From positions 1 to 50,082 of the forward strand of contig JAXGOY010000006.1 in the NCBI GenBank assembly GCA_040767225.1: DNA of 50,082 nt, in the 5' to 3' direction. The first letter of the stretch is position 1; every line of letters begins with the position of its first letter. The position numbers and the translations under genes were made by a program. Source of the stretch: Candidatus Dojkabacteria bacterium (GTDB taxonomy: Bacteria; Patescibacteriota; Dojkabacteria; SC72). A model generated the notes under the pieces. That model was not told where the DNA came from, searched no databases, and saw nothing but the letters and a program-made list of their open reading frames with translations. This document shows positions 15,238-46,653 of the stretch, piece by piece.

Positions 15238-18066
15238 ATGAAAAAAGAGAAAGAGAATGGTAAAACAAACAGGAGTGTTGCTAGGCATATACTGCATATC
15301 TTTGGTTTAATAGTATGTGCACTTTGTATATATATTCTTGTTATTTCTTTCTCAAAAAAAGAAAATGATAGTATAGTAAGAGCTGATAGTAATACATATT
15401 TTAGAAATGAAAATCCTAATTTTAATGTAGAGTTTATAAATGGGCAGTATATTAAATTTGAAACAGTATCTTCATATGTAAATCCCATAGAGCAAAAAGA
15501 GCCTACTGTATGGGAGAAGATAAAGGGTAAATTGCATATTAATCAAACAAAGAAAGGGGTACAGATATCACTTGTTGAAGTATCATATGACTCTGTGTTA
15601 GAGGAAATGAGTGGGAATAATGTAGGGGAGAGGGAGTTAAATAAAAGCATTAAGCTTGCAAAGATAGGCAGAGAACTTGATAGTGAGAGTGAAGTACCAA
15701 AAGATACTGTAATATCTAAGAATATATATGATGGAGTTGATATTCAGTATCAAATAATAAAGGGGAAAGGTCTTAAAGAAGAGATTGTTTTAAATGAGAT
15801 ACCTCAATATACAACTGAATGTGGCAAGGGAGAGTGTGTACTGCCTGTTAATAGATTTGTTTTTGAAATTGAAGTAGACGATGGCTTAACTATTAAAAAG
15901 AGTATTAGTGCAACTGATAAATATCCTAATGGAGTTGTATATATTGTTGATGGAAAGGGGAATTACTATGCCCACTTTCTTCCTGAATATGCAACTGATG
16001 CTGTTGGTATTAAAACAAGTAATGTTAAAGCTAGTATAGTAAAAAATGAAGATAAATATATATATGAGATAGTTTTAGACTCAAAGTGGCTGCTTGATAA
16101 AGATAGGGTGTTTCCAATAAAGATAGATCCAAGTATTGTTCATGATACACAGTTTGTGTTTGAGCAAGGGCAGTTTGATAGAGTTAAACTTAATGAGGTT
16201 ATGAATATACAGCTTGATAAGGCTTTGTCAGGGCAGTATACATCGCCTTCTGTTACTGTTGGAAGCAATGCTGTGGTTAAGGGTATTGAGTGGCAAAGTT
16301 TTGGTCAGGCAACTGAGGATAAGCAGGCTCCTTTTTCAAGATTAGATCTTGTAGTAGAAAACAACTTCGATAATGAGGGCTCTTTAGGGCTTGAGCAGGG
16401 AGAGAGCAGGCAGTTTACTGTAAACACTGATTCATCTGGATATGTAACTGTACAGTTTTGGTCTTACAAAAGGAGAATGTCTGAGGATAGTGAACTGTTT
16501 TCATCTAATTTAGGAAAACTCATAATTGAGAATGATAAATATGTATTTATTGATAGTAATAATATGTCCTATAATACCGAAATAGAAGTAGAGTATAACA
16601 GGTGGCAGTATATTACTATTGTCTTTGGTATAACAAACTCTAATGTAACAGTATATATTGATAGTAAAGAGTTTTCTGCTGATATGTCATACGGTTCTCA
16701 GAATAATTTAGGGAGTATACAACTTTTTGGAAGCGGGTATTTTGATGTTTTAAGAGTGTATGAAAGAATGCTTGCAAGTAATGAGGTTTTAAGTGATTCT
16801 GGATATTCTGATATATATTTTGAATATATGACAAGTAATGATAATATATCCTGGAGTAATTGGATATCAAAGTCACAGTATCCTATATCCTTAGCTTTTG
16901 AGAATGGGAATATGGATATAGTAGTAGATAGTGTTGATACTTCTAAGTACAATTTACTTTCACTTAAATTTCTTGCAAAAGAGGAAGGATATATAACTAT
17001 GGGTGGAAGTAAATTTAGTAATGGAATAGTTGATCAAGATATTCACAGCCTAGTAGATGCAGAAGGACAATTGGATAATACTGAGCAGATAAAGTATATT
17101 GATTTTGTATTTAAGCCCTCTAGTTTGCAGGATTCATGTCTACTTAGTGTTGGGGATGTGAATATTAAAGTACTGCAAACAGGAAAGGTAATAGTTTTGT
17201 ATGATGGTGAAAGCAACGAGTTGGCAGATTTATACATACCTCAAAGGAATAATTATCTTTCTATTTCTTTTTTAGACGATAAAACAGAAATATATTTAAA
17301 CGGCTGGCTTTCATTTAGTGGTGAGCCATATGTGTTAAATGCTAATGAGTACAAAATTGGTTTAGGATGTAGTGATATGCAGAATGCATTTGACGGTGAG
17401 ATTGAAAATGTAAGATACTCAGCTACTGCCCAAGATGAAGATGATATTTTAGAGTATCATACAATTGAAGAGAGAAAATATCCGCTTAAACCTATATTTA
17501 GAGCTACTTTGCAGAATAACAGTCAGATATTAAATGCTCAAAGCACCTCTTTTTCAATTACACAGCAGGCCTTTGGTGCTGATAATTATGTTGTAACTCT
17601 TAACAAAGGGGATACTATTGTTGTTTCGCAAGATGAGTATACAGCTTCTGGTGTTGTGAGCTTTGTTGATAATGATACAGGGCTTGTAACTGTAAATGAG
17701 TGGGATAGCAGCAGTACATTTCCTAATGAGGGGTTTAGTACATCTGCAGAGGTTCTTAAATGGCAAGAAGAATATATACCAATAGTGTTAAATAGCAGTT
17801 TAAATATACAGTACGGTGGTGACCTACAAATTAAGGATATGAGCTTAATATCTGCATTTGATAGTGGGGAGAGTATTAATATACAAGAAGGTAGCAAGTA
17901 TGTTAAATATAGGCTCATATTTATATCGAAATATCCTGATATCTCTGCATCTATCTCTAGTGTAACAATTAATATTGAAGAAAGTGGTCCACAGATGGAG
18001 CAGATAATGAGACATGGCAAGTGGTTTAATGAGAGTGGCAAACAGCCGTACTGGTGGGCTCAATAA
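15238..18066 (+). CDS. Large membrane-anchored protein with two LamG/concanavalin-A-like lectin domains
   Basis: The ATG lies 1 nt after the giant gene's TAA (TAATATG). There is an N-terminal TM segment (ILHIFGLIVCALCIYILVI). Two motifs are typical of Laminin_G_3-type domains: ...FDVLRVYERMLASNEV... and ...FDGEIENVRYSATAQDEDDILEY. Confidence 0.6.
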   Translation: MKKEKENGKTNRSVARHILHIFGLIVCALCIYILVISFSKKENDSIVRADSNTYFRNENPNFNVEFINGQYIKFETVSSYVNPIEQKEPTVWEKIKGKLHINQTKKGVQISLVEVSYDSVLEEMSGNNVGERELNKSIKLAKIGRELDSESEVPKDTVISKNIYDGVDIQYQIIKGKGLKEEIVLNEIPQYTTECGKGECVLPVNRFVFEIEVDDGLTIKKSISATDKYPNGVVYIVDGKGNYYAHFLPEYATDAVGIKTSNVKASIVKNEDKYIYEIVLDSKWLLDKDRVFPIKIDPSIVHDTQFVFEQGQFDRVKLNEVMNIQLDKALSGQYTSPSVTVGSNAVVKGIEWQSFGQATEDKQAPFSRLDLVVENNFDNEGSLGLEQGESRQFTVNTDSSGYVTVQFWSYKRRMSEDSELFSSNLGKLIIENDKYVFIDSNNMSYNTEIEVEYNRWQYITIVFGITNSNVTVYIDSKEFSADMSYGSQNNLGSIQLFGSGYFDVLRVYERMLASNEVLSDSGYSDIYFEYMTSNDNISWSNWISKSQYPISLAFENGNMDIVVDSVDTSKYNLLSLKFLAKEEGYITMGGSKFSNGIVDQDIHSLVDAEGQLDNTEQIKYIDFVFKPSSLQDSCLLSVGDVNIKVLQTGKVIVLYDGESNELADLYIPQRNNYLSISFLDDKTEIYLNGWLSFSGEPYVLNANEYKIGLGCSDMQNAFDGEIENVRYSATAQDEDDILEYHTIEERKYPLKPIFRATLQNNSQILNAQSTSFSITQQAFGADNYVVTLNKGDTIVVSQDEYTASGVVSFVDNDTGLVTVNEWDSSSTFPNEGFSTSAEVLKWQEEYIPIVLNSSLNIQYGGDLQIKDMSLISAFDSGESINIQEGSKYVKYRLIFISKYPDISASISSVTINIEESGPQMEQIMRHGKWFNESGKQPYWWAQ

Positions 18067-27740: not shown

Positions 27741-29108
27741 ATGAGTATTCATTCTGAGTATATTGCTCCTAAGGGCTGGAAGCCTAAGAATCCTGATGAG
27801 GACTACCTTATTACAGAGCTTGATATAGAGCTTGCAGATGGTGTACCAGAGGATAAATTTGAGGAGGTGGCAGCAAGCTGTGCTGCTGAAAGCTCAACTG
27901 GTACATGGACTAAGGTTGATGAAGGGAAGCATTCTGGTACAAAGCTTGCTAAAAAGCTTAGAGCTGTTGCATATGATTTGGATCCTAAAACAAAGACATT
28001 TAAGATTGCATACAAAAAAGAAATATTTGAACCTAGCAATATGGCAGGTATATTTGCTGGAATTGCAGGAAATATTGATAGTATGAAGATGATTAAAGCA
28101 TTTAGATTGCTTGATGTAAGATTTCCCAAAAGCCTTGTTCAAAGTTTTCCTGGGCCACAGTTTGGTATTGATGGAGTTCGTGAATTTATGCAGATAGAGA
28201 GAGGACCTTTGCTTTGTACAGTCCCTAAGCCAAAGATAGGGAGAACTGCAAAAGAGCAGGCATATCTTGCTAAAATACTTTTTACTGCTGCAAATGGAGA
28301 GTTTCAGGGTATTAAGGATGATGAAAATCTTACAAGTTTGTATTTTAACAAATTTGAAGATAGATGTAAGCTTGTACATGAAGTACAAAGAGATGTTGAG
28401 CAGAAAAGCGGGAAGAGAAAGATGTATTTGTGTAATGTTACACACTCTGATATAGATGTAATGCTTGATAGGGCTGATATGATTAAGGAAAATGGAGGAA
28501 GATGGATGATGATGGATGTTATAGTTACTGGTTTTGCTGCTGTTCAAACTATGAGAAAGCATAATCCTGGGTTGGCAATACATGCACACAGGGCTATGCA
28601 TGGACTGCTTGATAGGGAATCAGGGGCTGGAGTGTATGATAAAGGGGTTATTGTGGATTTTTCGATGTCTATGGTGGTTATTGCTAAAATCATGCGTCTT
28701 TTGGGCGTAGATTCGCTTCATGGTGGTGCACCAAAGGGTAAGATGGAGAACTATAATGAGCCTATGCTTATACAGCAGGCACTTCAAGAGGATATTACAC
28801 CTGTAACTGATATGACACTTGGTCAGAACTGGTATGGAATGAAAGGAGTATGGCATACTGCATCAGGTGGTCTTCATCCTGGAACAATAGGGGAGTCAAT
28901 AACAAGACTTGGAGAAAACCTCATTGTACAAGCGGGAGGCGGTGTACTTGGTCATCCTTGGGGGATTGAAGCAGGTGTTGAGGCTATGGTACAGGCAAGA
29001 GATATTGCAATGCAAAAAGAGGATTTAAATAAATGGATAATAGAGCATCCTGATAGTGCACTTGCAAAGGCAGCACACTATTGGGGATTTGATCCTAAAT
29101 TTGTGTAA
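27741..29108 (+). CDS. rbcL: Ribulose-1,5-bisphosphate carboxylase/oxygenase large subunit, form II/III- or III-like
   Basis: Motifs seen are AAESSTGTWT, PKPKIGR, GIKDDEN (carbamylated Lys plus metal ligands), HAHRAMHG, SGGLHPG and AGGGVLGHPWG. No small-subunit gene is nearby. Confidence 0.9.
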   Translation: MSIHSEYIAPKGWKPKNPDEDYLITELDIELADGVPEDKFEEVAASCAAESSTGTWTKVDEGKHSGTKLAKKLRAVAYDLDPKTKTFKIAYKKEIFEPSNMAGIFAGIAGNIDSMKMIKAFRLLDVRFPKSLVQSFPGPQFGIDGVREFMQIERGPLLCTVPKPKIGRTAKEQAYLAKILFTAANGEFQGIKDDENLTSLYFNKFEDRCKLVHEVQRDVEQKSGKRKMYLCNVTHSDIDVMLDRADMIKENGGRWMMMDVIVTGFAAVQTMRKHNPGLAIHAHRAMHGLLDRESGAGVYDKGVIVDFSMSMVVIAKIMRLLGVDSLHGGAPKGKMENYNEPMLIQQALQEDITPVTDMTLGQNWYGMKGVWHTASGGLHPGTIGESITRLGENLIVQAGGGVLGHPWGIEAGVEAMVQARDIAMQKEDLNKWIIEHPDSALAKAAHYWGFDPKFV

Positions 29109-35476: not shown

Positions 35477-37053
35477 TGTATTGTATATGAGTTTATTATG
35501 ATGCTATGCAGACCTGCTTGTTCAATAGGGGAAACGGATAGTGTAACAATTTTTTCTCCATTAGATGATACTGCTTGTATTAATGCTAAGTTTGTATCCT
35601 GTAAGACCTTGGTTTTATTATCTCCATCTATATCACAAATGTACATAGTGTTGTCCTCTATATATGAAATATTTAGAGAATTAAATAACCAGTGAATATT
35701 AACTGCATTACTATCTATACTCTTTATTAATTTAGCACCAATATCTACTGTATGATCACCTTCTTCTTTCTTAAATGTGAATACACTAAATCCTTCCTGA
35801 TCTTTAAAGATAAACTTCATATTATTAGGAGAGAATTCTATTAGTTCAGATACATATGGAGATACTAAGTAATATTTTTTAAGTTCAATATCATACCAAT
35901 ATGATGCTAAACTTGTTTTAATGTATATTCCTTTAGCATCTTGATTTACTATAAAATTCTTAATCTCACCAACTGTTTTTGTACTCTCGGGGGAATTTGT
36001 AAAAGGTAGATATTTTCCACTCCCAGTATCTTTCTGATATCTCATAATATAGTCTTGATTCTTTTGGAAGAATAAATCTGAAAGTATTATCTTTGATTCA
36101 GATCCATCCATCTGTGATTGGGTTAGAAGATATCCATTAATATTATTATCTGTTATATATTCAGGGTTTGTCTCTATTTTATAGAAAAAACCTTGTCTAT
36201 CTGTACTCCATATATACCCATTTTGAGGAGTTTTCTTAATTAACAAATATCGTGTTTGTTTATTAATATCAAGTGCAATTATGTCTGTATCAGATTCAAA
36301 CATAAGATACTGACTATTTTGAGCCCAGCTCATTTTGTATGATGTAAGGTCATTAATATTAAGTACTGTTAAAGTATCAAGTGTAGTACCCTTAGTTGCA
36401 TCTAGTATATAGCTGGTTGTGTTATCTGTACTAACAATTGTTAAGACTCCTAATGTGCCATTTGGAGCAAGGAGGATTTCTACCATTGGTTCTTGTATAG
36501 AATCAAAGGTTAGAATAACTCTTGGATTAGTAGATATGTTCCAAAATGGAGTATTAACATCAAATCTGTATAATGTGTACCTATAGGTTAAAACTTCAGG
36601 TATGTATTCATTAACGAGAATGTATATGTAATCCCTATTATTGCTTAGCCAGCTATTTATATATTTTCTGTCCTGTAAAGAGAAGATTTCTTCTTGAGCT
36701 ATCTCTTTCTTTATAAGCCATGGATATACAGGAGTAGATTTCTGTTCTTTAATCTCAACATCCTTTTTCCACTCAACATATCCATTTTTCTTAACTAACA
36801 CACTATGTATTCCTACTGGTAGACTTACACTTTTTGAAGTTCTTCCTTCTTTCTCTCCATTAACATAAAGATCTGCAAGAGAAGGAGATGATTGTACAGT
36901 TAAAACACCTGTTTTTACTAACAGCTGATTAGAGTCGCCAAGCCTCCATCCATTTGCATATAAATATATTGCTACAGCCCCAGTATATACAAATAATGAA
37001 GCTAGTATTGATATTAAAGAAAAGAGTTTTCTGTTGTAACCATTCTTCTCCAT
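35473..37053 (-). CDS. PEGA-domain protein with a probable C-terminal beta-propeller, membrane anchored
   Basis: An N-terminal TM segment is followed by the PEGA-like segment VQSSPSLADLYVNGEKEGRTSKSVSLPVGIHSVLVKKNGYVEWKKDVEI. The remainder is beta-rich and repetitive. The 3' end overlaps the GT2 gene by 4 nt in convergent orientation. Confidence 0.6.
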   Translation of the reverse strand: MEKNGYNRKLFSLISILASLFVYTGAVAIYLYANGWRLGDSNQLLVKTGVLTVQSSPSLADLYVNGEKEGRTSKSVSLPVGIHSVLVKKNGYVEWKKDVEIKEQKSTPVYPWLIKKEIAQEEIFSLQDRKYINSWLSNNRDYIYILVNEYIPEVLTYRYTLYRFDVNTPFWNISTNPRVILTFDSIQEPMVEILLAPNGTLGVLTIVSTDNTTSYILDATKGTTLDTLTVLNINDLTSYKMSWAQNSQYLMFESDTDIIALDINKQTRYLLIKKTPQNGYIWSTDRQGFFYKIETNPEYITDNNINGYLLTQSQMDGSESKIILSDLFFQKNQDYIMRYQKDTGSGKYLPFTNSPESTKTVGEIKNFIVNQDAKGIYIKTSLASYWYDIELKKYYLVSPYVSELIEFSPNNMKFIFKDQEGFSVFTFKKEEGDHTVDIGAKLIKSIDSNAVNIHWLFNSLNISYIEDNTMYICDIDGDNKTKVLQDTNLALIQAVSSNGEKIVTLSVSPIEQAGLHSIIINSYTIH

Positions 37054-37106
37054 GACAAATTTAGTATATCATATCTAGAACTTAATTTTATTGATATAAT
37101 TGGGTT

Positions 37107-38123
37107 ATGTTAGGAAAGAAACTAGGAATAGATCTAGGAACAGCTAATTCTGTAGTGTTTGTACAAGGCGAAGGTATTGCCTTTGTTGAGCCTACTGTTG
37201 TAGCAATTGATGTAAACACATTTAAGGTAATTGCTGTTGGATCTGAAGCTAAAAAAATGATTGGTAAAACACCTGAGAATATTATTGCAAAGAGGCCTTT
37301 AAAAAATGGAGTTATTGCTGATTCAAGAATTACAGAAGCATTGCTTAAATATTTTTTTAATAAAGCATTAGGAAAGTCTAGGTTCTTTAAGCCCGATGTT
37401 GTTATTAGTGTTCCTGCAGGGATTACAACAGTAGAGCAGAGGGCTGTAATAAAGGCTGCAAATAATGCTGGTGCAAGAGAAATTACAATGCTTCCTGAGC
37501 CTCTTTTAGCTGCATTGGGTGCAGGTTTACCTATTGAGACCTCATCGGGGAACATGATTGTAAATTTAGGAGGTGGTACAGCAGAGGTTGCAGTAATATC
37601 TCTTGATGGGATAGTGGAGTATGACTCTTTAAGAATTGCAGGAGATGCAATAAATGAAGCAATAATTAACTATATGAAGAAGAAAAAAGGTATTTTAATA
37701 GGTGAGCAGACTGCAGAAAATATTAAGATAAGGGTAGGATCAGCAATAGAAATAAAAGATCCAAAGAGTATGGAGGTAAGAGGAAGAGATTTTGGTGCAG
37801 GTTTGCCTAAGGCAATAACAGTGGACTCTAATGATGTAGCAACTGCTGTAAAAAGGCCTTTATTAAGCATTATTAATAGTATTAAAGGAGTTCTTGAAAG
37901 AACGCCTCCTGAGCTTTCTGCTGATATTATGGATAGGGGAATGGCAATGACTGGTGGAACATCTAAACTTAGGAATTTAGATAAGTTATTTATAAAAGCT
38001 ATTGGTGTTCCAGCATATGTTGCAGATGAGCCTATGTATTGTGTTGCAAAAGGAACAGGTATTGCGTTAGAGTTAATGGCAGAAGGGGAAAGAAAATTTA
38101 GTTTTAATAGAGCAATTACTTAA
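37107..38123 (+). CDS. mreB: Rod-shape determining actin homolog MreB
   Basis: Motifs LGIDLGTANSVVFV, VISVPAGITTVEQRAV, NLGGGTAEVAVISL and MTGGTSKLRNLDKL are present. Confidence 0.92.
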   Translation: MLGKKLGIDLGTANSVVFVQGEGIAFVEPTVVAIDVNTFKVIAVGSEAKKMIGKTPENIIAKRPLKNGVIADSRITEALLKYFFNKALGKSRFFKPDVVISVPAGITTVEQRAVIKAANNAGAREITMLPEPLLAALGAGLPIETSSGNMIVNLGGGTAEVAVISLDGIVEYDSLRIAGDAINEAIINYMKKKKGILIGEQTAENIKIRVGSAIEIKDPKSMEVRGRDFGAGLPKAITVDSNDVATAVKRPLLSIINSIKGVLERTPPELSADIMDRGMAMTGGTSKLRNLDKLFIKAIGVPAYVADEPMYCVAKGTGIALELMAEGERKFSFNRAIT

Positions 38124-39287
38124 ATGAGTATTTTTTCTAAAACAGGAAAACAAGAGATGAAATTAAGTGAGGTTGTTTCCTTGATGTCAAAGTTAAGACT
38201 CCCCATATCTCTTGTCTTTACACCTGTTAATTTAAAGGAAGAGAAAGAAAAATTTTTAAATTCTGATTTGTATGAGCCTGTATTTAAGTATAGGGGGGTA
38301 AGAAATAATAATGAAGAAATATTAAAAAAGCTTTCTTCTTTAAAGCTGATTACTGATGTGGATCCAAGAATCTCCGACTTCTATATTCAACTAATTGCTT
38401 CAAAAAATGATTCTAATATTCTTATGAATGCAGTAGGAAATAACGAGCTTGTAACAGAGATGTCATATAAAAAGTATGGAGTACCAACTCCACTGCTTTT
38501 TAGAAATGCATCAAGAATTTTGAGAGGAAATACTAGTGGCTACAATACAATTAAGTCTCCTGTTATTAAAGAAAGTGATATTTTCCATTATGAAAAAATA
38601 AGAGAGGTTTTTAATCTTGTCTTTGAGCATTTTGGTTTGAATGATTGGCAGGTTCAAGCTTCATCTAAAATACAGAAAAATGGTGTTAAGGTGGGAGTAA
38701 AAAGTAAATGGGTTATTATGGATCCTAATATAGAGAGGTCTAAATTTAAGTTAAAAAAGACCTTAGTACATGAGGTTGGTACACATGTTTTTAGGTCTGT
38801 AAATGGACTGAATACTAAAATTGAAGCACTTTCAAAACCTAATCTACCAAAATATCTTGATATTGAGGAAGGTTTAGCCATATGGAATGAGTCTGATATG
38901 AACCTTCTTACATTAAAGAATTTTAAAAAGAGTGCTTCTTTTGTTTATGCAATATATATTGGTGAACAGTTGTCATTTAGGCAGTTGTATAATGCACTTT
39001 TAGCTGTTTTCCCTAAAAATACAGCATTTAATATTACATATAGGGTAAAAAGAGGGCTAGGGGATACAAGTTATCCAGGAACATATACAAAAGATATTGT
39101 TTATTTCAGGGGGTTTAAAAAGGTTAAGAAAGCATTAGAAAAAGACAAATCATTATATGAAAAACTTTATGCTGGTAAAATAGATCTTAAACAGTGTGAA
39201 TGGGTAGATGATGGCCTTATACCAAAAGCTAAAATAGTTCCATCTAAGCAGGAGTGGAATGATTTATTTAGGAAGGTGGGAATTTAA
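38124..39287 (+). CDS. DUF1704 / 'QEGLA-motif' / MATCAP-like putative metallocarboxypeptidase
   Basis: The ATG immediately follows the mreB TAA. HEVGTH (nt 38769-38786) and IEEGLAIWNE (EEGLA at 38865-38879) match the HExxxH...(Q/E)EGLA signature of the DUF1704 family. Confidence 0.7.
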   Translation: MSIFSKTGKQEMKLSEVVSLMSKLRLPISLVFTPVNLKEEKEKFLNSDLYEPVFKYRGVRNNNEEILKKLSSLKLITDVDPRISDFYIQLIASKNDSNILMNAVGNNELVTEMSYKKYGVPTPLLFRNASRILRGNTSGYNTIKSPVIKESDIFHYEKIREVFNLVFEHFGLNDWQVQASSKIQKNGVKVGVKSKWVIMDPNIERSKFKLKKTLVHEVGTHVFRSVNGLNTKIEALSKPNLPKYLDIEEGLAIWNESDMNLLTLKNFKKSASFVYAIYIGEQLSFRQLYNALLAVFPKNTAFNITYRVKRGLGDTSYPGTYTKDIVYFRGFKKVKKALEKDKSLYEKLYAGKIDLKQCEWVDDGLIPKAKIVPSKQEWNDLFRKVGI

Positions 39288-40228
39288 TCACTAAAGGCTG
39301 TAATTATGGCTTCAGCAATGTTAACTGGCTCTCCTTTTATTTTTGTCTCATATGCCTTAAATCCAGGATGTAAACTTATTTCCTGTAGTAATGGCTTTCC
39401 ATGCATTTCCATAATGTCAACGGCAATAAAATCTGCTTCTAAAATGCGTGTAACATTCTGCACAAAATTTTTAATCTCCTCTTCGGGATTGTTGTACATA
39501 GAATAAATTCCCTTACTCACGGTCATGAAACTTTTGTCTTTTCTTCTTTTCCATCCTCCTATGATTTCTCCTTTTTTTACAAACACTCTCATATCTGTAT
39601 CACTATCCGATAACTCTTGTATAAACATATTAGAAAGGTCTAAGTTTTTAATGTTATCTTTCTTAAAATCATCTGGAGTATCAATTTTGAAGATATTCTT
39701 TTTTATTAGCTCTTTTCCGTTTATCTCTTCAATTCTATTTTCTCCAGTACAGCTTTTAAGTATTAATGGATATGAATTAAGGATATCTCTTGGAGCCAAA
39801 TAGTTACCATCTGTTCTGTAATATGAGTTAAAGTAGGGGATATTATTTTGATGACAAAACAATGCTAGTGCAATTTTGTTGTAATATGGAAGTTTTTTAA
39901 TAGTTTTACTGTTTTGTACTAATATTTTGTTTTCTGGGTTGTTTATATTATGTTGATCAGTATATTCCACAATGTATCTTTTAAGCTGATATTGTGATTC
40001 GTTATGTAAATCATGTCCTCTGAATATGATATGACTGTATTTTCGTATATCTTCTCCTTTTACTTTTATTACTGTTTCACCATCGATAAATTCAAATTCA
40101 AGCTCATCAAAGTAGGCTAGAGTATGGGGGATATTTTTTTTATTCAATTCTTCCATTATTCTAATATCAGCACTTGCAATTTTTTCTTGTGTTATTCTTT
40201 GTCTTTTATCAAGTATTAAATATCTCAT
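39284..40228 (-). CDS. ATP-grasp ligase D, divergent RimK-like
   Basis: DMRVFVKKGEIIGGWKRR and FIAVDIMEMHGKPLLQEISLHPGF resemble the RimK-type ATP-grasp core. The start overlaps the stop of ligase C (TAATG). Confidence 0.55.
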   Translation of the reverse strand: MRYLILDKRQRITQEKIASADIRIMEELNKKNIPHTLAYFDELEFEFIDGETVIKVKGEDIRKYSHIIFRGHDLHNESQYQLKRYIVEYTDQHNINNPENKILVQNSKTIKKLPYYNKIALALFCHQNNIPYFNSYYRTDGNYLAPRDILNSYPLILKSCTGENRIEEINGKELIKKNIFKIDTPDDFKKDNIKNLDLSNMFIQELSDSDTDMRVFVKKGEIIGGWKRRKDKSFMTVSKGIYSMYNNPEEEIKNFVQNVTRILEADFIAVDIMEMHGKPLLQEISLHPGFKAYETKIKGEPVNIAEAIITAFSD

Positions 40229-41925
40229 TATTTTAATATTTTTATCTTATCTATTAATTTTTTCTTTTTGTATCTCTTTACAATCTTCATATTCTCTTTA
40301 TCATTGCTTAAATCTTTTGTAATACATAGTAGATTAATGTAATCAAATCCAAGACCATGTTCTATTACTTCGTTCCAGTTTCTGTAGTGTAGAATAATGG
40401 TGTCTAGGTAAGCATTACATTTAATTGCTTCTGTAGCTCTCCATCTTGTTAAGTTTCTGTTTACTTCTATACCATTGATTAAGTACCTATCATCAATTAA
40501 CTCTCCTACATTTTCATTTTCTTTGATAATGTTCTTTTTTCTAAGCAGAGTTGATACATCATTATTACTTTGTCCTACTACAACAAACCTTTTACATTTG
40601 TTTTCCTTAAGAAGCTCATCTATGTATATATCTGCAACATATCCACGCTGAGTACCTAGTACTGGATACATATTAAGATATGTTTCAGGCATTGTATTTA
40701 CTTCAAGTATTGCTCCATTACTCTTTGTGAGTGGCTTAGATATATCTTTACACATAATATCAACGCCAAGTGTAAATGCATGCATTGATGTAGCTATAGT
40801 TTCAACAATGCTCTTTATTTCCTTACATACACTATCAGTAAAATCTTGTGTAATACCTCCCTGACTCATACTTGCGACCTTTCTTACATAAACTCTTTGT
40901 CCTTTCTCAGGGATTGAGTCTAATGTAAGATTTTGCTGTGTAAGGTACTTTATTAATGGTTCATCAATCTTTATAGGCTTTAAAATATGTGCAGGATTTT
41001 TAATATCTCTTCTTGGATCTGAATTTTCCTGCTCAATTAGTTCTTTAATACTTTTGCTTCCATCTCCAGTCACAAAAGCAGGGATTCTCTTTGTTGCAAT
41101 TTGAAGCTTTCCATTTATAACAAGGAGCCTGTAATCTTCTCCGTATACCTGCTCTTGAATCATTATTTTTTCTTGCCATGCCTGTCTTACTCTGGTATCT
41201 ATTGCAGCTTTTGCATAATCAAAAGCATCTTGCGCCTTTTGAATAGTATCTATTCCTACAGTAACACCCTTGCCAGCTGTTAAGCCTGTTGGTTTTATAA
41301 CTACAGGTTTTTCATATTTATCCCAGACCTTTTTAATATATGATTTATTTGGGAGTAATTCCCATTTAGGAAGTGTCATACCAAGTCTTTGTAAAAAAGT
41401 ATTAGTTATCCATTTATCCCTTTGTAATTTCTGTGCTATATATGCATCTTTTGTTGAAGATGCAGAGCATGTTATCTGTGATCCTCTCCCGCATCCTAAA
41501 GTGAAGTATCTATTTGCTCCTTTGCCTATTTCTTCTTTTTCTGTAATCATTTCAGCAGATTCAATAATTGAAGGGGTTATTTCAATATTATTTTTCATAC
41601 AAGACTGAAGAAGCGAAATAGTAGACATTGATTTAATTCTTTTATTAATCAAAACATTTATAATTGATTCTTTTGCTTGGTTTAAAGTAATCTCTTGTTT
41701 TGAAAGTTTCTGCAATGTTTCTGCAGATTCTCTCCATAGAAATGGAAGTTTTGAAGATATTGTTAAAAGAGAAGGAGAGATAGTGTATTCATTTATAAAG
41801 ATAGTATGCAGAGATGAAATTGTATCAAGAAGTTCAGTTATATCTCCAATGTTGTTTCCATTTAAAGAAATTTTAACTCTTGATATCTCAGATTCTAGAT
41901 TTAGCCCTTGTATAGTTTGAATCAT
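40228..41925 (-). CDS. ATP-grasp ligase C, similar to the cyanophycin synthetase N and G domains, with a truncated and degenerate M-domain remnant
   Basis: CphA-like strings are LGCGRGSQITCSASSTKDAYIAQKLQRDKWITNTFLQRLGMTLP, VVIKPTGLTAGKGV, DYRLLVINGKLQIATKRIPAFVTGDGSKSIKELIEQENSDPRR and ILEVNTMPE. Where CphA has (I/V)xVTGTNGKTT this protein has FVVVGQSNNDVST. Confidence 0.65.
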   Translation of the reverse strand: MIQTIQGLNLESEISRVKISLNGNNIGDITELLDTISSLHTIFINEYTISPSLLTISSKLPFLWRESAETLQKLSKQEITLNQAKESIINVLINKRIKSMSTISLLQSCMKNNIEITPSIIESAEMITEKEEIGKGANRYFTLGCGRGSQITCSASSTKDAYIAQKLQRDKWITNTFLQRLGMTLPKWELLPNKSYIKKVWDKYEKPVVIKPTGLTAGKGVTVGIDTIQKAQDAFDYAKAAIDTRVRQAWQEKIMIQEQVYGEDYRLLVINGKLQIATKRIPAFVTGDGSKSIKELIEQENSDPRRDIKNPAHILKPIKIDEPLIKYLTQQNLTLDSIPEKGQRVYVRKVASMSQGGITQDFTDSVCKEIKSIVETIATSMHAFTLGVDIMCKDISKPLTKSNGAILEVNTMPETYLNMYPVLGTQRGYVADIYIDELLKENKCKRFVVVGQSNNDVSTLLRKKNIIKENENVGELIDDRYLINGIEVNRNLTRWRATEAIKCNAYLDTIILHYRNWNEVIEHGLGFDYINLLCITKDLSNDKENMKIVKRYKKKKLIDKIKILK

Positions 41926-41932
41926 GCTGTTA

Positions 41933-42907
41933 TTAAATCATTTTAGATATGTACTCTTGAATTGGAATTGCAACTCTAACTACCTCGCCTTCGTCAACTT
42001 TGTAGTGAAGTCTTAGGCCAGGATTATAATTTATTTCATTTACAGCACATTTCACAGGTTTTGTTATATCCTGGGTAATTATATCAACACCTCCAAACTT
42101 TGCTCCTATTGCATGTACTGCATTTACAGCAATATCTTTGTAATATTGATGTGTTTGTGAGGCACACTCCTGAGTAGTTCCTCCTGTTGTAAGATTGCAG
42201 TTGTATCTAAGTATTACCTCTTCATTTTCTTTAGGAATATATTTAAGACTTATACCCTTGTTCTCAAGTCTTTGATATACCTCATTATCAATGCGAATTG
42301 GCTTCATTAAATTCTTTTTTCTTTCTATATTTTTCTTTTTTATCAATGTTTGTATATTATCTTTTCCATTGCCAACTACAAAAGCAGGTTTTCTTCTTAC
42401 AATACCAATTACTCGATTCCCAAGTACTAGAAGTCTATAATTATCACCTTCTACAAACTCCTCACCAATTACTTTATGACTTCCCTTTGATGCACGGAGT
42501 GCTGAATTAAAGGCATTAATAACCTGTTTTTTATTTTGTGGAAGTAGTGATACACCAATTCCACCTAACTGTTGTGAAGGCTTAATTACAATATTTTTAT
42601 ATTCCTTAAAAAACCTTAACGCCTCATCTTTATTGTTTAGTGTAACTTGCTTAGGAACTGGAATGCTAAAGGAAGAAAGTATTTTATTTGTAAGATTCTT
42701 TCTTTTTGCTATTGTTGTACTTGGTGTATTTGTAAGTGGAGTAGCAGTATTAATTATATACCAGTGTTTATTTTCATTTTCAAACTTTGCAAGAAGACCA
42801 TGTACTAAAACAGTATATTTTATATTTAACTCATCTGCTGCTTCTAAATAGTAAGCAAGATGTACATTTCCTGCTTCTTTTAAGTATTGTTCGTATGATT
42901 TTGTCAT
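41933..42907 (-). CDS. ATP-grasp ligase B, cyanophycin synthetase G-domain-like only
   Basis: TATPLTNTPSTTIAKRKNLTNKILSSFSIPVP, VIKPSQQLGGIGV, NYRLLVLGNRVIGIVRRKPAFVVGNGKDNIQTLIKKKN and EINYNPGLRLHYKVDEGEVVRVAIPIQEYI are present. The protein ends where the CphA G domain ends. Confidence 0.65.
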   Translation of the reverse strand: MTKSYEQYLKEAGNVHLAYYLEAADELNIKYTVLVHGLLAKFENENKHWYIINTATPLTNTPSTTIAKRKNLTNKILSSFSIPVPKQVTLNNKDEALRFFKEYKNIVIKPSQQLGGIGVSLLPQNKKQVINAFNSALRASKGSHKVIGEEFVEGDNYRLLVLGNRVIGIVRRKPAFVVGNGKDNIQTLIKKKNIERKKNLMKPIRIDNEVYQRLENKGISLKYIPKENEEVILRYNCNLTTGGTTQECASQTHQYYKDIAVNAVHAIGAKFGGVDIITQDITKPVKCAVNEINYNPGLRLHYKVDEGEVVRVAIPIQEYISKMI

Positions 42908-42921
42908 ATGTTTAGTATATA

Positions 42922-44400
42922 TTAAAATGTATTGGTTGTATCTATTAGGTAACCTGTAAGATCGGTCTTACCAATAATTACTGGCTGAGAGATATCAGAG
43001 ATTTCTGTTGATATGAACTCTGTAATTTTTATCTGATCTTCTATCTTTATAGGGATATCAAATACAGGTCTTACTTTTATTTCTCCATTTTCTACAATTT
43101 TTGCAAGTCTTTTTATACTGCTATTCTTTATTATTTCTTCCTCATTTTTATCAATAAAGTCCTGAGCATCTTTAAGACTTTCAAATTTCTTAGGTATTCC
43201 ATATTTTTCAAACTGTTTATGGTCATTAAAATATCCAATTCTGTTAGCAAGTTTTGAATCAATTCTTGATGTAAGAACTCCTGTATCCATATATGCTTTT
43301 ACAAGCTCTCTTTTACTATCTTTGTATTTTTCAAGTTTAGACCTGTCTGCCTTTTTGTCGTATACATATATTCTTTCAACAATATTAAGAACCTTTCTTC
43401 CGCTTATTGCTTCTATACTTTCTTCTACTTCACCTCCAAAGAGGCTTTTTGCCACTCTTATTCCATGTTTTATACCTTTTATTTTTACATCTTTAACTTT
43501 TTCTAATCTCCATCTCAATCCTGCTTGATTTGCGACCTGAATACCAAGTCCTGGTCTTGCATTTACTTCAAATACGACAGGGCCTTTATCAGCGTCAAGT
43601 GCAATATCTACACCTACATACCCTAAACCTGTCACTTTTTGACATTTTAGGGCTATCTCAAGTAATGTATTCCATTGAGGTATCTGTATACCACTTAAAG
43701 GTTTGTTTTCTTTTAAATCTAATGTTGAATCTATTACTTCATATGTATCACTAATTAAAGAATTAGGCTTCATATGCATAGAGTAGGTGGTTATTCCTGT
43801 TCCTATATCTATTCCTGTACATATTGCGCCTGCATGAAGATTAGCAGTACCATTTGATCTTTTTGTTGGTAATCGTAGCATTGCCATAATGGGAACAAGA
43901 TTAAAGCAGATTATTCTTACATCGGGAACTCCTTTATATGAATATTGCTTAAGTAGTGGGTCTGTCTTTATTCTTTCCTCTATTATTGCGATATCATTTC
44001 CAAAACCCATAGAGAATCTTCCTTCTAATATGCTCTCTATATGAAGTATGATATCCCTTTGTGTCATTACTGTTCCATTAGGTCTTATCCATTCATATTT
44101 TCCTTTTTTCTTGCCATAGAATACAATTATTCCATTTCCTCCTGTCCCTGCATTTGGTTTTATAACAAAGCTTTTGGGAAGACTATCCCAATCAAGGAAT
44201 TCAAGCTGTTTTTTTGTTCTTATTAACTTATATACCTCAGGTGTTTGTATAAGCTCCTTTTTAAGAACTCTTTTAGTGTATATTTTATTATCTGCAATAG
44301 CCTTGGCAGATTGAGAGTTAAATGGCCTTACATATTCCTGATTTCTTCTATTTAGGCCAAGAACTTCCTTCTTTAATTTTATTGGATTATTACTTTTCAT
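42922..44400 (-). CDS. ATP-grasp ligase A, alpha-L-glutamate-ligase-like (RimK-related), fused to a C-terminal retropepsin-like domain
   Basis: LGLNRRNQEYV, ADNKIYTKRVL, VIKPNAGTGGNGI, VRIICFNLVPIMAMLRLPTKRSNGTANLHAGAICTGIDIGTG and GLGYVGVDIALDADKGPVVFEVNARPGLGIQVAN match the 'alpha-L-glutamate ligase-like' family as I recall it. The C-terminal roughly 150 aa carry KAYMDTGVLTSRID and ...PVIIGKTDLTGYLIDT, as in RimK-associated retropepsin-like ('Zn_protease') proteins. Confidence 0.7.
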   Translation of the reverse strand: MKSNNPIKLKKEVLGLNRRNQEYVRPFNSQSAKAIADNKIYTKRVLKKELIQTPEVYKLIRTKKQLEFLDWDSLPKSFVIKPNAGTGGNGIIVFYGKKKGKYEWIRPNGTVMTQRDIILHIESILEGRFSMGFGNDIAIIEERIKTDPLLKQYSYKGVPDVRIICFNLVPIMAMLRLPTKRSNGTANLHAGAICTGIDIGTGITTYSMHMKPNSLISDTYEVIDSTLDLKENKPLSGIQIPQWNTLLEIALKCQKVTGLGYVGVDIALDADKGPVVFEVNARPGLGIQVANQAGLRWRLEKVKDVKIKGIKHGIRVAKSLFGGEVEESIEAISGRKVLNIVERIYVYDKKADRSKLEKYKDSKRELVKAYMDTGVLTSRIDSKLANRIGYFNDHKQFEKYGIPKKFESLKDAQDFIDKNEEEIIKNSSIKRLAKIVENGEIKVRPVFDIPIKIEDQIKITEFISTEISDISQPVIIGKTDLTGYLIDTTNTF

Positions 44401-45055
44401 CCTCTCTTGTAGTAAATCTAAATCTAAAAAGATCCTTTATTCTTAATCCTTTAAAAGTACCAAGTAAAATATTAAATAGTGTTAGGAGAGGAATAATCCA
44501 TAGATTGTTTAATATGTAGTTAGAGATAATGTCCCTTGTTATTACAAACCATCCTGCAATTGCAACTAATATTGTTCCCAGTAGTGTAACAACAGATGTT
44601 TTTATTGACTTCTTAATATATTGTCTTATAAAGAAATCTGATAGTGTAGCTATACATATAAAGGCAAGAGGTGGAATGTTTGACATATTTTCTAAACCTA
44701 AGCCAAAGGTGTCTACTATTACAAAGAAGAGAACTAATACCATTGATAAAATAGTATAATTTGCAGCTATTCTTGTTATATAGTGCATTCTTACTCTTCT
44801 TAATACAGAGTATGAAAGAAGGGAAGTTAGTATAACAACAAAAGTAATTGCTAAACCATATTTTAATCCAGTATATGAATATGCTATAGCTAATATTATT
44901 GGTGCATATATTCCATATGTCTTACTTCCTACTATATATCTTGCAATACTTACAATTGTAGAAACAATACAAACAGATATTAAAAGTTCTAATACAGTCT
45001 GAGATACCCCATGATCAACAATCCATTGTGTAAAAGCTACAGAATTATTATTCAT
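44390..45055 (-). CDS. 7TM membrane protein related to the 7TM module usually fused to inactive transglutaminases (7TM_transglut-like)
   Basis: It is polytopic. ARYIVGSKTYGIYAPIILAIAY and the C-terminal LLGTFKGLRIKDLFRFRF match the GxxTFGxFxP...GRYTGLRLxELxRFR pattern of that family as I recall it. The 3' end overlaps the ligase A start by 11 nt. Confidence 0.6.
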   Translation of the reverse strand: MNNNSVAFTQWIVDHGVSQTVLELLISVCIVSTIVSIARYIVGSKTYGIYAPIILAIAYSYTGLKYGLAITFVVILTSLLSYSVLRRVRMHYITRIAANYTILSMVLVLFFVIVDTFGLGLENMSNIPPLAFICIATLSDFFIRQYIKKSIKTSVVTLLGTILVAIAGWFVITRDIISNYILNNLWIIPLLTLFNILLGTFKGLRIKDLFRFRFTTREDEK

Positions 45056-45089
45056 ATCCTTAATATTTTAAAGTTAAAGTTTATGCATA

Positions 45090-45119
45090 ATTATACTTTG
45101 TAAAGCATATTATTGTCGA
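45090..45119 (-). promoter_or_regulatory. Candidate promoter of the 7TM/ATP-grasp operon
   Basis: On the minus strand, TCGACA (45119-45114) is followed by an 18-nt spacer and TATAAT (45095-45090). Its -35 box overlaps the -35-like TTGTCG of the divergent plus-strand promoter. Confidence 0.4.
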
Positions 45120-45138
45120 ATGATATGAGTGGTATAAT
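45113..45138 (+). promoter_or_regulatory. Candidate promoter of the XRE-family gene (extended -10)
   Basis: TGgTATAAT lies at 45130-45138, and TTGTCG at 45113-45118 with a short spacer. It is followed by a leader of about 115 nt that contains two TGCAACCC direct repeats (45164-45171 and 45205-45212). Confidence 0.4.
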
Positions 45139-45258
45139 GAAAAACAGAGTATTTTGGGTAAAATGCAACCCCTAGTTTACATAAAGCAACTGTAAGCTGG
45201 TGGTTGCAACCCTGCAATACAGATAAAATTGGGCATTAAATTTAATATATAAATTAAT

Positions 45259-46653
45259 ATGAGCTTAAGTAAAAACTTAGAGTACCTAAGAAAAAGCAAG
45301 AAAATGTCTCAAGAAGATCTTGCTTTTAAATTAGGTGTGTCAAGGCAGGCAGTATCTAAATGGGAATCTGGTGCTGCATATCCTGAAACAGAGAAAATAA
45401 TTGCAATATGTAAGCTTTTTGATTGTTCACTTGATGAACTTATGAAAGATGATATTGCAGAGTTAAGAGAAGATGAGAAGAGAAGATATACATTTAATGA
45501 CTTAATTGAAGAGGTCTCATCTCTTTTACAAAAGACTGTAGACATATTTAATCAAATGGATAGAAAAACAAGATTTAGATTTTTCTTTGAGCTTGTAGTA
45601 GCATGTGTTGTTATTTTCTTTGTTGTAAAGATACCTTTTAATTATATTGCTTCACTTGGTTACAATGTGTTTTTTGCAATAGGGGGAGATACAGCTCAAG
45701 TACTTAAAGCTATATGGAGATTTTTAGTAGATATTACATATTTTATTACTTCATTACTAATATTTATTTCTGTTTATAAAGCAAAATTTCTTAATATTGC
45801 GAATTTTAGTAAGAAGTCTACCCAAACCCAAATAGAAGGAGAGAAAGAAGAAAAGGAGGAAGGTAATAAAGAAGAGAAAATTGTTAGACATGATTTTGGT
45901 GTATTTTCTTTTTTAGGAAAAGTATTTGTTTTTTGTTTAAAGGTTTTTGTAGCATTTTTATCTCTCTTTATACTTTTCTATATGCTTGTTGCCGTTGCAG
46001 GCTTAGTGATTGTTATATCTTGGATGTTTGATGGTGTGTTTCTTTTTAGTTTAGTTCTTTTTGCATTATCATTTATTCTTCTTTCTACTATTATCATTTA
46101 TGTAATTTACAATTTTATAATTAATAGAAGAAGTAAGTGGAAAAAGGTTTTTACATTTCTTTTAATATCCTTTATTGGTCTTGGTGTAAGTATGGGAGTA
46201 GGGGCTATTGAAATGAAAGAGTTTACATTTACTAGTTCTCCTCGTCAGGATATAGTTCTGGATAAAAAGAGTGAGACTTTTGAGATGACAGATTCTTTAA
46301 TAATTGAAAATTATGGGTATGAGATTGTATATATTGAAGATGAGAAGATGCAGGATATGGTAAGGGTAGAAGTTGCATATTACGATGGTTTTGAGGATGT
46401 AGAAATAGTTCAAAATGGAAACAGTATATTTATTAATTCAAGGCAAGAAAACTTTTCTATTCCTAAAATTTATGAGATGTTAATAAAAGATTTAAAGGAG
46501 AAGGAAATTCATGTTGATTACCGCTATCTTTCAGATCTTTATGTAACAGTGTATACAAGCAAAGAGAATATTGAGAAGATACAGAACAATATTGAGCAAC
46601 AGCAGACAAAAGATGAGTATGATGTTGGTGTACTAGAAGAAAAGCCACTTTAA
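45259..46653 (+). CDS. XRE-family helix-turn-helix protein fused to a multi-pass membrane region and an extracytoplasmic C-terminal domain
   Basis: The N-terminal LRKSKKMSQEDLAFKLGVSRQAVSKWESGAAYPETEKIIAICKLFDCSLDELM is an HTH_3. It is followed by several hydrophobic helices, an acidic EGEKEEKEEGNKEEK linker and a C-terminal domain of about 150 aa. Confidence 0.75.
   Translation: MSLSKNLEYLRKSKKMSQEDLAFKLGVSRQAVSKWESGAAYPETEKIIAICKLFDCSLDELMKDDIAELREDEKRRYTFNDLIEEVSSLLQKTVDIFNQMDRKTRFRFFFELVVACVVIFFVVKIPFNYIASLGYNVFFAIGGDTAQVLKAIWRFLVDITYFITSLLIFISVYKAKFLNIANFSKKSTQTQIEGEKEEKEEGNKEEKIVRHDFGVFSFLGKVFVFCLKVFVAFLSLFILFYMLVAVAGLVIVISWMFDGVFLFSLVLFALSFILLSTIIIYVIYNFIINRRSKWKKVFTFLLISFIGLGVSMGVGAIEMKEFTFTSSPRQDIVLDKKSETFEMTDSLIIENYGYEIVYIEDEKMQDMVRVEVAYYDGFEDVEIVQNGNSIFINSRQENFSIPKIYEMLIKDLKEKEIHVDYRYLSDLYVTVYTSKENIEKIQNNIEQQQTKDEYDVGVLEEKPL

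Follow-up and report, generated by a model that had tools for sequence, protein, structure and literature searches.

A 50,082-nt chromosomal stretch of a Candidatus Dojkabacteria genome (WS6; Patescibacteria, candidate phyla radiation, CPR), hereafter the window, carries on its minus strand a five-gene set (39284-45055; g1 to g5 in transcription order) that encodes a 7TM membrane protein and four ATP-grasp ligases, the first of which is fused to a retropepsin-like peptidase domain. We describe the gene set, its folds, conserved catalytic motifs, fusions and conservation, and find that the operon is a Dojkabacteria-specific, ligase-rich elaboration of a two-gene core that occurs across Patescibacteria. 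With an adjoining gene for a MATCAP-like metallocarboxypeptidase, six genes are co-located and conserved together in Dojkabacteria, and their products include three catalytically intact ligases and two conserved peptidase active sites. They most likely represent a previously undescribed, enlarged form of the Rlo/RimK-RimB type of system, one that has gained CphA-like and MATCAP-type components. It is probable, if well short of certain, that they act as an ATP-dependent, template-independent writer-eraser by which an acidic Asp/Glu-rich peptide would be built and trimmed at the membrane without ribosomes.

Gene order and operon structure

The five genes are packed tightly, with an overlap of 11 nt between g1 and g2, gaps of 14 nt between g2 and g3 and of 7 nt between g3 and g4, and a TAATG junction with an overlap of 1 nt between g4 and g5 (Table 1). 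These junctions, read from the sequence, are exactly those that an initial annotation of the window had listed for the five minus-strand genes. Because the spacing is tight and the arrangement conserved, g1 to g5 would form one co-transcribed and translationally coupled operon. The sigma-70-like site 5' of g1 was the top match within 36900-45400; it is a consensus match only, and the total count of such sites in this interval was below the shuffled expectation. The five-gene arrangement is not a chance pattern, since long open reading frames (ORFs) occur here in DNA of low G+C content (~31% across the window) and more than 20 distinct loci from Dojkabacteria show the same operon order, with protein identities of 45-100%.

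All five family assignments made in the initial annotation, for the 7TM protein and the ligases it called A to D, hold in searches with Pfam and TIGRFAM hidden Markov models (HMMs) and in fold searches, which recovered ATP-grasp, CphA- and RimK-related families. Catalytic residues are intact in g2, g3 and g4, and g5 lacks one Mg ligand, such that loss of catalytic residues in most of the ligases was not seen. Nor is the gene order unique to this contig or scrambled elsewhere, as it is preserved in relatives.

The flanks of the cluster consist of housekeeping genes (rho, leuS, argS, proS, uvrA, comEC, a form II/III-like RuBisCO gene and rplKAJL-nusG-secE). Between rplL and the operon lies a plus-strand gene (45259-46653) whose 464-aa product is an HTH_3 (Xre-type) protein and contains several hydrophobic stretches; in other Dojkabacteria, which do not have it, the operon directly follows rplJ-rplL. 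We rejected this membrane protein as an operon regulator, as it was found only in near-identical contigs and is absent from loci L008-L016. A small precursor-peptide gene within the operon was likewise rejected, the junctions being too tight and the 200-nt leader containing only unconserved ORFs of 20-40 codons.

Table 1 Positions of the cluster genes, their domains and adjoining features in the window
Feature	Position	Strand	Description
Best sigma-70-like promoter match, TCGACA-18-TATAAT	45090-45119	-	11/12 matches, ~35 nt upstream of g1
g1, 7TM_transglut-type membrane protein	44390-45055	-	ORF, 221 aa
g2, RloC-like ATP-grasp ligase fused to RimB/RloA-like retropepsin domain	42922-44400	-	ORF, 492 aa
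g2 ATP-grasp domain, residues 18-303	43492-44349	-	PF14397 + TIGR02291
g2 retropepsin-like (RimB/RloA-like, Pfam Zn_protease) domain, residues ~340-492	42925-43383	-	Domain profile
g2 catalytic D372-T373-G374	43279-43287	-	Conserved DTG motif
g3, stand-alone CphA G-domain-type ATP-grasp ligase	41933-42907	-	ORF, 324 aa
g4, CphA2-like N + G + truncated inactive M protein	40228-41925	-	ORF, 565 aa
g4 N domain	~41521-41925	-	Domain layout
g4 G domain	~40606-41520	-	Domain layout
g4 M stub	~40231-40605	-	Mur-ligase remnant, ~125 aa
g5, divergent RimK/LysX-like ATP-grasp	39284-40228	-	ORF, 314 aa
MATCAP/QEGLA-type (PF08014) metallocarboxypeptidase gene	38124-39287	+	Convergent with g5, 4-nt overlap
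mreB paralogue	37107-38123	+	Abuts MATCAP-like gene, no spacer; MreB_Mbl 2e-128

The core ligase, its peptidase domain and its membrane partner

The ligase part of g2 matched PF14397 (ATPgrasp_ST, 1e-64), and the top model was TIGR02291 (alpha-L-glutamate ligase-like; 2.4e-85, 286.3 bits, 282 of 317 positions), at a score below the curated cutoff of 314.2. An AlphaFold 2 model of g2 (predicted local distance difference test, pLDDT, 81) was closest in Foldseek to RimK (5zct, 4.6e-10), followed by ArgX/LysX and Ddl. Across 78 diverse homologues K81, D160, R162, D265 and E278 are invariant and N280 is retained in at least 90%. The ATP-binding Lys, the D/E-x-R motif and the D...E-x-N Mg-binding triad of active ATP-grasp carboxylate-amine ligases are conserved in g2, as they are in g3 and g4.

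The C-terminal part of the protein matched RloA3 and RloA2 retropepsin models at 5e-5. Among 55 homologues D372 and T373 are invariant and G374 is kept in at least 90%, and an xIIG(R/K)xxL motif of the C-terminal beta-sheet (I-I-G-R-x-x-L type) is also conserved. A profile of the domain retrieved 9g59 (6.5e-5), 9g58 (8.9e-5) and 2pma (1.6e-3) from the Protein Data Bank (PDB), the first two of which were deposited as putative ATP-dependent zinc protease domain proteins, corresponding to the Pfam Zn_protease/RimB-like family. A single-sequence PDB search with the same domain gave no match, and structures of the Zn_protease family were recovered by the domain profile only. PF05618, which newer precomputed annotation names 'RimB-like', matched 11 of 13 members of the g2 family (best 4.7e-7), generic aspartyl-protease families matched too, and g2 of the window taken alone scored under the PF05618 cutoff (18.7 vs. 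27). By its invariant D-T pair, the domain profile and the PF05618 matches, the retropepsin-like domain proposed in the initial annotation for the first ligase is real. The protein has no signal peptide, and the domain sits on a cytoplasmic ligase. A homodimer with a two-Asp active site is plausible because RimK-type ligases are oligomeric.

The g1 protein matched PF14402 (7TM_transglut, 1.2e-17) and consists of the 7TM module alone, with at least five strong hydrophobic segments and no transglutaminase domain. Against the RloB model only the C-terminal 7TM part was aligned (positions 311-504 of 508; 36.7 bits vs. a cutoff of 900). Its orthologues share GLRxK(E/D)YFRF as a conserved cytoplasmic C-terminal motif.

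CphA-like and RimK/LysX-like ligases

The g3 protein aligned with the G domain of CphA only and has neither an N nor an M domain (cyanophycin synthetase model TIGR02068, positions 165-469, 1.7e-62, 211.6 bits vs. a cutoff of 850; CphA1 7lgm, 8e-37). In 16 orthologues K109, G115/116/118, R158, R172, N238, D275, E291, N293 and R299 are invariant. We mapped published CphA residues to g3 and g4 through HMMER alignments, in which g3 R172, N238 and R299 correspond to R323, N394 and R458 of TeCphA1, residues that hold the incoming aspartate as the CphA G domain extends the chain C-terminus with Asp (PMC9427784). Since these Asp-recognition residues are retained, the residue that g3 attaches to the C-terminus of a chain is probably Asp or a close analogue of it. 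It has Thr at the site for the cyanophycin Arg side chain, which is acidic in CphA (Su E215, St D212).

The g4 protein aligned with positions 125-573 of the cyanophycin synthetase model (~1e-72) and scored 242-256 bits on the CphA models TIGR02068 and PRK14016, vs. cutoffs of 850 and 877. Its AlphaFold 2 model (pLDDT 91, predicted template modelling score, pTM, 0.89) was best matched by CphA2 of Gloeothece citriformis (7ta5; 2.9e-39, TMq 0.70, TMt 0.68, 600 columns), with CphA1 structures next, and its architecture of N domain, G domain and truncated inactive M domain is that of cyanophycin synthetase 2. The stub had been called dead in the initial annotation, and it does carry a degenerate P-loop, GQSNNDVS, in place of the Mur-ligase GTNGKT. 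The ATP-grasp residues K211, R266, D389, E408 and N410 are invariant, and so are two residues of the incoming-substrate site, S352 and Y416. In StCphA2, whose incoming substrate is a dipeptide rather than Asp, cyanophycin and beta-Asp-Arg are bound by T163, D212, R308, D362, R389, N393 and S395 (PMC10273328). R308, D362, R389 and S395 are conserved in g4 as R266, D321, R348 and S354, N393 corresponds to an invariant Ser, T163 to a variable T/A/S position and D212 to a variable Asn/Lys position. Relative to TeCphA1, g4 retains the R323 equivalent, and in place of N394 and R458 it has Ser and Tyr, both invariant; this Tyr is common to StCphA2 (PGVYMH) and g4 (PETYLN). The unit condensed by g4 is probably different from that used by g3, and possibly larger, and the chain on which the two proteins act would be something other than Arg-decorated cyanophycin.

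The divergent ligase g5 matched PF08443 (RimK, 2e-8), and the profile of its family matched RimK 5zct (3e-6) and LysX. K158, D212, R214, D271 and E283 are invariant, and position 285 is Ser in 33 of 38 sequences and Gly in 5, such that E-x-S replaces the canonical E-x-N Mg-binding motif. Homologues of g5 were found in Dojkabacteria/WS6 only. On the RimK family model TIGR00768 none of the four ligases exceeded the cutoff of 143.4 bits (g2 48.9, g3 61.7, g4 37.5, g5 40.3).

A second peptidase and its fusions to the core ligase

The protein encoded convergently to g5 matched PF08014 (2e-30, 106.5 bits vs. a gathering cutoff of 27) and, at a score below the equivalog cutoff, the QEGLA model TIGR02421 (9.9e-36, 123.7 vs. 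338.65 bits), scores that place it within the PF08014 superfamily and outside the proteobacterial TIGR02421 equivalog. Aligned to human MATCAP (7z5g, 2.9e-10), its HEVGTH and EEGLA motifs fall on HEIGTH and EEGLA, and HExxxH plus EEGLA are retained in 25 of 29 MATCAP-like ORFs. Enzymes of the MATCAP/TMCP family remove C-terminal Tyr and Glu and shorten poly-Glu chains (PMC10499314).

We assign this gene to the system, beyond the five genes originally delimited, because it adjoins the operon in Dojkabacteria (in every locus with enough sequence), because MATCAP domains are fused to g2 homologues, and because related clusters (L017, L021, L043 and L071) contain MATCAP as a gene of its own. The initial annotation had described a peptidase as built into the system, which is correct for the DTG domain fused to the ligase and incomplete in that the second, MATCAP-like peptidase lies outside the operon. 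To place the fusions, g2 was searched against 1.8 billion representative proteins and Pfam was run on the 77 nearest full-length representatives. A fused MATCAP domain was found in 34 of these, usually on a ligase that also has a retropepsin-like domain; the typical fusion is ~800 aa long with the layout ATPgrasp_ST~Zn_protease~MATCAP, and one fused homologue (P0409) is annotated to a Parcubacteria group bacterium. Other fusions join the ligase and retropepsin to a second ATP-grasp (P0398) or the 7TM module to ATPgrasp_ST (P0466, P0499). Collectively, the fusions put the ligase, both peptidases and the C-terminus of the 7TM protein in one compartment, the cytoplasm. A weak match to the TTL family was present in 9 of 78 g2 homologues.

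The mreB paralogue that abuts the MATCAP-like gene is a conserved neighbour in Dojkabacteria only, and its membership in the system is doubtful. A second mreB is located on the same contig with mreC and a penicillin-binding protein (PBP) gene (L001, 1419-2474).

Distribution across Patescibacteria

A genome-collection scan with a single protein reached Dojkabacteria only, and wider reach was obtained through the representative search and a profile-based metagenome scan. Within Dojkabacteria the order 7TM > g2 > g3 > g4 > g5 < MATCAP < mreB is kept down to 43-61% identity. In three distant members (L013, L014 and L015) a glycosyltransferase and hydrolase pair on the opposite strand lies between g4 and g5, and g5 remains paired with the MATCAP gene. 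Two of these loci (L013 and L014) also have a same-strand C45 Ntn-hydrolase gene between the g3 and g4 orthologues, annotated in L013 (12549-13526) as a C45-family autoproteolytic acyltransferase/hydrolase (NF040521, 5.5e-37) and filling the equivalent gap of L014; the system may thereby have gained a third hydrolase.

Among non-Dojkabacteria Patescibacteria, the 7TM gene stands directly upstream of the ligase-retropepsin gene in 57 of the 59 metagenomic loci with upstream sequence. Contiguous additional ligases downstream, counted in the 41 such loci whose sequence continues for at least 3.5 kb on that side, numbered none in 20 loci, one in 12, two in 6, three in 2 and four in 1; these are minimum values, as seed-based ORF classification may overlook ligases of high divergence. 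CphA-G-like ligases recur in separate lineages (three in L017, and others in L021, L057 and elsewhere). The richest related cluster, L071, has contiguous genes on one strand (8336-17777) for a 7TM protein, a ligase-retropepsin fusion, two RimK-like ligases, a CphA1-type ligase, an ATP-grasp_3 protein and a MATCAP protein, and its CphA1-type gene is full-length (ATP-grasp + Mur_ligase_M + Mur_ligase_C, 853 aa). The survey of gene neighbourhoods therefore showed the order to be kept in Dojkabacteria and subsets of it to recur in other Patescibacteria. The multi-ligase arrangement, which the initial annotation did not recognise as known, is real, but it is a lineage elaboration of the two-gene core and not a stand-alone invention.

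Linkage to rplKAJL was rejected as a feature of the system, since it is confined to Dojkabacteria and clusters of other lineages lie between ruvC and ruvA; in L017, L020 and L021 the cluster stands between yebC-ruvC(-galT) and ruvA-ruvB, and in L017 and L019 tyrS and a class A PBP gene follow it. Six loci (L040, L042, L053, L058, L072 and L075) have ORFs of ~590-604 aa that combine a RimK-like ligase with a C-terminal extension, which in L058 resembles a DUF3541 protein that is separately encoded in L020 (13672-14607). Split or partly matched genes were also observed: g5 is split into ORFs of 120 and 192 aa in a near-identical contig (L002, 12016-12959), g4 is split into ORFs of 347 and 213 aa in L025, and L009 gave only partial matches for g3, g4, MATCAP and mreB. 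These may be frameshifts or pseudogenes, assembly errors or masked stretches.

Comparison with characterised systems

The initial annotation had likened the cluster to a triad of RimK-related ATP-grasp, 7TM protein and retropepsin, for which Iyer et al. 2009 is said to be the comparative-genomics source. The link to that triad is correct, and the triad is no longer anonymous: it is the RloABC operon of Pseudomonas (P. aeruginosa; Lormand et al., mBio 2025; PMC12239564). RloA proteases are secreted, redundant and required under hypo-osmotic stress, and they cleave poly-Glu reporters in vitro; deletion of rloB or rloC suppresses a triple rloA mutant, and Rlo has been tied to osmotic tolerance, beta-lactam sensitivity, biofilm formation and cell shape (PMC12239564). 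As in RloABC, the cluster encodes an ATP-grasp ligase of the same clade (TIGR02291 being the top model of g2), a 7TM_transglut membrane partner beside it and an RloA-related retropepsin-like aspartic peptidase with a DTG motif. It differs in that g1 lacks the periplasmic inactive transglutaminase domain of RloB, that the peptidase is fused to a cytoplasmic ligase without a signal peptide whereas RloA stands alone and is secreted, and that three additional ATP-grasp ligases and a MATCAP-like carboxypeptidase are present. In addition, g2 stays under the TIGR02291 cutoff (286 vs. 314 bits), and the hosts are Patescibacteria here and mostly Proteobacteria there.

RimK and RimB form a cytoplasmic complex in which RimK adds poly-alpha-Glu and RimB trims it (PMC12239564). 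There an ATP-grasp alpha-L-glutamate ligase and a retropepsin-like protease, both cytoplasmic, work as a pair; in g2 the corresponding domains share one polypeptide, and RimK is the best solved-structure match of both g2 and the g5 family. However, g2 and g5 score far under the RimK cutoff, the RimABK system has no 7TM partner, CphA-like ligase or MATCAP-like enzyme, and its S6 target is not implicated here. Judged by its sequence, g2 is thus a ligase of the RloC clade in a RimK-RimB arrangement, with the cytoplasmic protease covalently attached.

With CphA2 (7ta5, 8fxh; PMC10273328), g4 shares the N + G + truncated inactive M layout (TM ~0.7) and the Tyr at the position of CphA1 R458, but it is only ~20-23% identical and ~70 residues shorter, Asn or Lys takes the place of the Arg-binding D212, and N393 has become an invariant Ser. 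CphA2 is described as cyanobacterial and as acting alone on beta-Asp-Arg, in contrast to the multi-ligase and peptidase setting of g4 in Dojkabacteria. Likewise, g3 has the ATP-grasp catalytic set and the R323, N394 and R458 equivalents of the CphA1 G domain (7lg5, 7lgm, 7wae), but lacks the N and M domains, has Thr for the Arg-binding Glu and reaches 211 bits vs. a cutoff of 850. A further comparison is with MATCAP/TMCP (KIAA0895L) and TTL/TTLL, where the PF08014 fold family, the HExxxH...EEGLA zinc site and partnership with ATP-grasp C-terminal ligases, often fused in the relatives, recall the writer-eraser logic of tubulin tyrosination and glutamylation; here, however, the setting is bacterial and without tubulin, and the ligase it is paired with is of the RloC clade, some members of which resemble TTL only weakly. 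Our literature search found no description of CphA-like or MATCAP-containing Patescibacteria clusters, although its coverage was incomplete and an earlier description is possible.

Proposed function and alternative explanations

Stepwise, template-independent synthesis of a peptide or polymer is the most reasonable mechanism for the encoded folds. Each of the four ATP-grasp ligases would convert the carboxylate at the C-terminal end of a lengthening chain to an acyl phosphate and couple one amino acid or small peptide unit to it, with g2 acting as an RloC/RimK-like ligase, g3 as a CphA1-type ligase with Asp-binding residues, g4 as a CphA2-like, polymerase-type enzyme and g5 as a RimK/LysX-like ligase. 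Jointly they would build, on the cytoplasmic side of the membrane, an oligo- or polypeptide rich in Asp/Glu, its acidic nature being suggested because relatives of every component act on Glu/Asp chains and g3 keeps an Asp pocket. The retropepsin-like domain of g2 would be an endopeptidase that trims or processes the chain, as its relatives RimB and RloA cleave poly-Glu, and the MATCAP-like metallocarboxypeptidase an exopeptidase, as its eukaryotic relatives shorten poly-Glu; between them they would limit or recycle the chain. The 7TM protein, predicted to be an obligate partner of g2, most likely tethers the ligase to the membrane and, in addition, would either export the product or control its synthesis, and by analogy with Pseudomonas Rlo the system may serve envelope or osmotic homeostasis.

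Several observations weigh against this writer-eraser reading. Neither g3 (Thr) nor g4 (variable Asn/Lys) has the acidic residue that binds the cyanophycin Arg side chain; their acceptor is therefore not one used by any characterised CphA, and the acidity of the chain is argued from the relatives. Lacking the canonical Asn Mg ligand, g5 could be non-catalytic. The interruption between g4 and g5 in distant Dojkabacteria means that strict five-gene co-transcription is not universal, cytoplasmic peptidases fit a simple 'make and export' model awkwardly, and g3 and g4 also score well on models of enzymes that make small molecules, namely GshAB and N-acetylglutaminylglutamine amide (NAGGN) synthetase.

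Among the alternatives, we consider it unlikely that the cluster makes a cyanophycin-like intracellular storage or osmotic-buffer polymer, in which g3 as the Asp-adding enzyme and g4 as a polymerase of pre-formed dipeptide units would build a branched or mixed poly-Asp-based chain, g2 and g5 would carry out the side-chain or building-block ligations of the lost M domain, and the retropepsin and MATCAP-like enzymes would stand in for cyanophycinase in mobilising the polymer. The best fold match of g4 to CphA2 over N, G and truncated M, its invariant Tyr at the TeCphA1 R458 position as in StCphA2, the complete set of CphA1 Asp-recognition residues in g3 and the full-length CphA1-type gene of L071 would all be expected under such a scheme. 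Polymerisation of osmolyte amino acids would also be in keeping with Photobacterium damselae, where low salinity induced rimK 52-fold, A0J47_RS17020 (annotated as glutathione synthase GshB) 38-fold and the adjacent QEGLA gene RS17025 27-fold (PMC10308900), which hints that pairs of a ligase and a MATCAP-type enzyme respond to hypo-osmotic conditions in Proteobacteria too. Yet the acidic Arg-holding residue is not conserved in g3 or g4, g4 falls far below both CphA cutoffs, storage granules do not explain a universal 7TM partner, and most related clusters have no CphA-like gene. To a similar degree improbable is C-terminal tagging of a specific protein, in a cycle of the RimK-S6, LysX-LysW or TTL-tubulin type whose tag both peptidases would erase. 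The solved folds nearest to g2 and the sequences nearest to g5 are those of RimK, LysX and ArgX, all of which modify the C-termini of proteins; MATCAP is a carboxypeptidase of protein tails, weak TTL matches occur among g2 homologues, and a passage of PMC3495828 that cites Iyer et al. 2009 predicts prokaryotic peptide-tagging systems of ATP-grasp ligase plus peptidase comparable to TTL. The candidate targets would be a ribosomal protein, the neighbouring MreB paralogue or the 7TM protein itself, and the Dojkabacteria cluster does follow rplJ-rplL and abut the mreB paralogue; but no candidate target gene is conserved across the clusters of different lineages, which elsewhere lie between ruvC and ruvA, and CphA-type ligases are known to act on free polymer chains only. 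We rejected the MreB paralogue as a tail substrate because it ends in ...FSFNRAIT, without an acidic tail, and is a neighbour in Dojkabacteria only, and rejected self-modification of the 7TM C-terminus because orthologue tails past GLRxKEYFRF are variable and end in Lys or other non-acidic residues.

We regard as very unlikely a role in making a small peptide metabolite or decorating an envelope precursor, such as a glutathione- or NAGGN-like osmolyte or thiol, a poly-glutamylated cofactor, or amino acids attached to a peptidoglycan or glycopolymer precursor, with the 7TM protein as flippase or transporter. Such a role would account for the matches of g3 and g4 to the GshAB ATP-grasp module (5.8e-52 and 2.3e-48) and to NAGGN synthetase (4.4e-36 and 1.5e-32), for the cell-shape and beta-lactam phenotypes of Pseudomonas Rlo mutants and for the glycosyltransferase, PEGA, Wzy_C and PBP genes near several loci, and the 'sugar-transfer associated' name of the g2 Pfam family reflects glycosyltransferase neighbourhoods. 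These envelope-gene neighbours are not conserved between lineages, however, two dedicated peptidases, with relatives that act on poly-Glu, are fused to the core ligase in many genomes and are hard to square with a di- or tripeptide product, and the CphA N domain and M stub, features typical of polymerases, are still present in g4. A bolder form of the writer-eraser reading, which we offer tentatively and hold to be rather less probable than not, is that the product is a new ribosome-independent poly-amino-acid of Patescibacteria, either a hetero- or branched polymer that is based on Asp/Glu and resembles cyanophycin, or a long tail attached to an acceptor. As many as five stand-alone ATP-grasp ligases would act one after another at a 7TM partner to assemble it, and retropepsin and MATCAP-type enzymes would remodel it. 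If this were true, the ligase-MATCAP fusions would be prokaryotic forerunners of the eukaryotic TTL/TTLL-MATCAP tubulin-tail code.

Other features of the window

Elsewhere in the window, all on the plus strand, a gene at 27741-29108 encodes a homologue of the RuBisCO large subunit (PF00016, 5.7e-59), consistent with the form II/III-like RuBisCO reported in WS6/Dojkabacteria (PMC5113843). A full-length serpin is encoded in this CPR genome at 3736-4971 (PF00079, 3.1e-107), adjoining an M23/LysM peptidase gene and two tRNA-Ala genes. The region 7620-18066 encodes two successive proteins that may belong to a surface or attachment apparatus: the first (2538 aa) combines beta-propeller/NHL/lactonase repeats with a Peptidase_S74 intramolecular-chaperone domain, and the second (942 aa) has no Pfam match.

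Implications

The Patescibacteria version offers new handles on the product of Rlo ligases and on the role of their 7TM partner. Natural fusions unite a ligase, an endopeptidase and an exopeptidase in one cytoplasmic polypeptide, and physically link this bacterial ligase clade to MATCAP, a eukaryotic eraser family of tubulin tyrosination and glutamylation. The accessory ligases carry recognisable specificity residues, of an Asp-type CphA G domain in one case and of a CphA2-like enzyme in another, and the gene set, widely conserved and experimentally tractable, is compact enough to be expressed as a block, which could reveal the products of Rlo-type ligases. Patescibacteria are generally described as having small, streamlined genomes, and because the core pair is retained across many divergent contigs despite such streamlining, its conservation suggests that it is important for the envelope or physiology of Patescibacteria.

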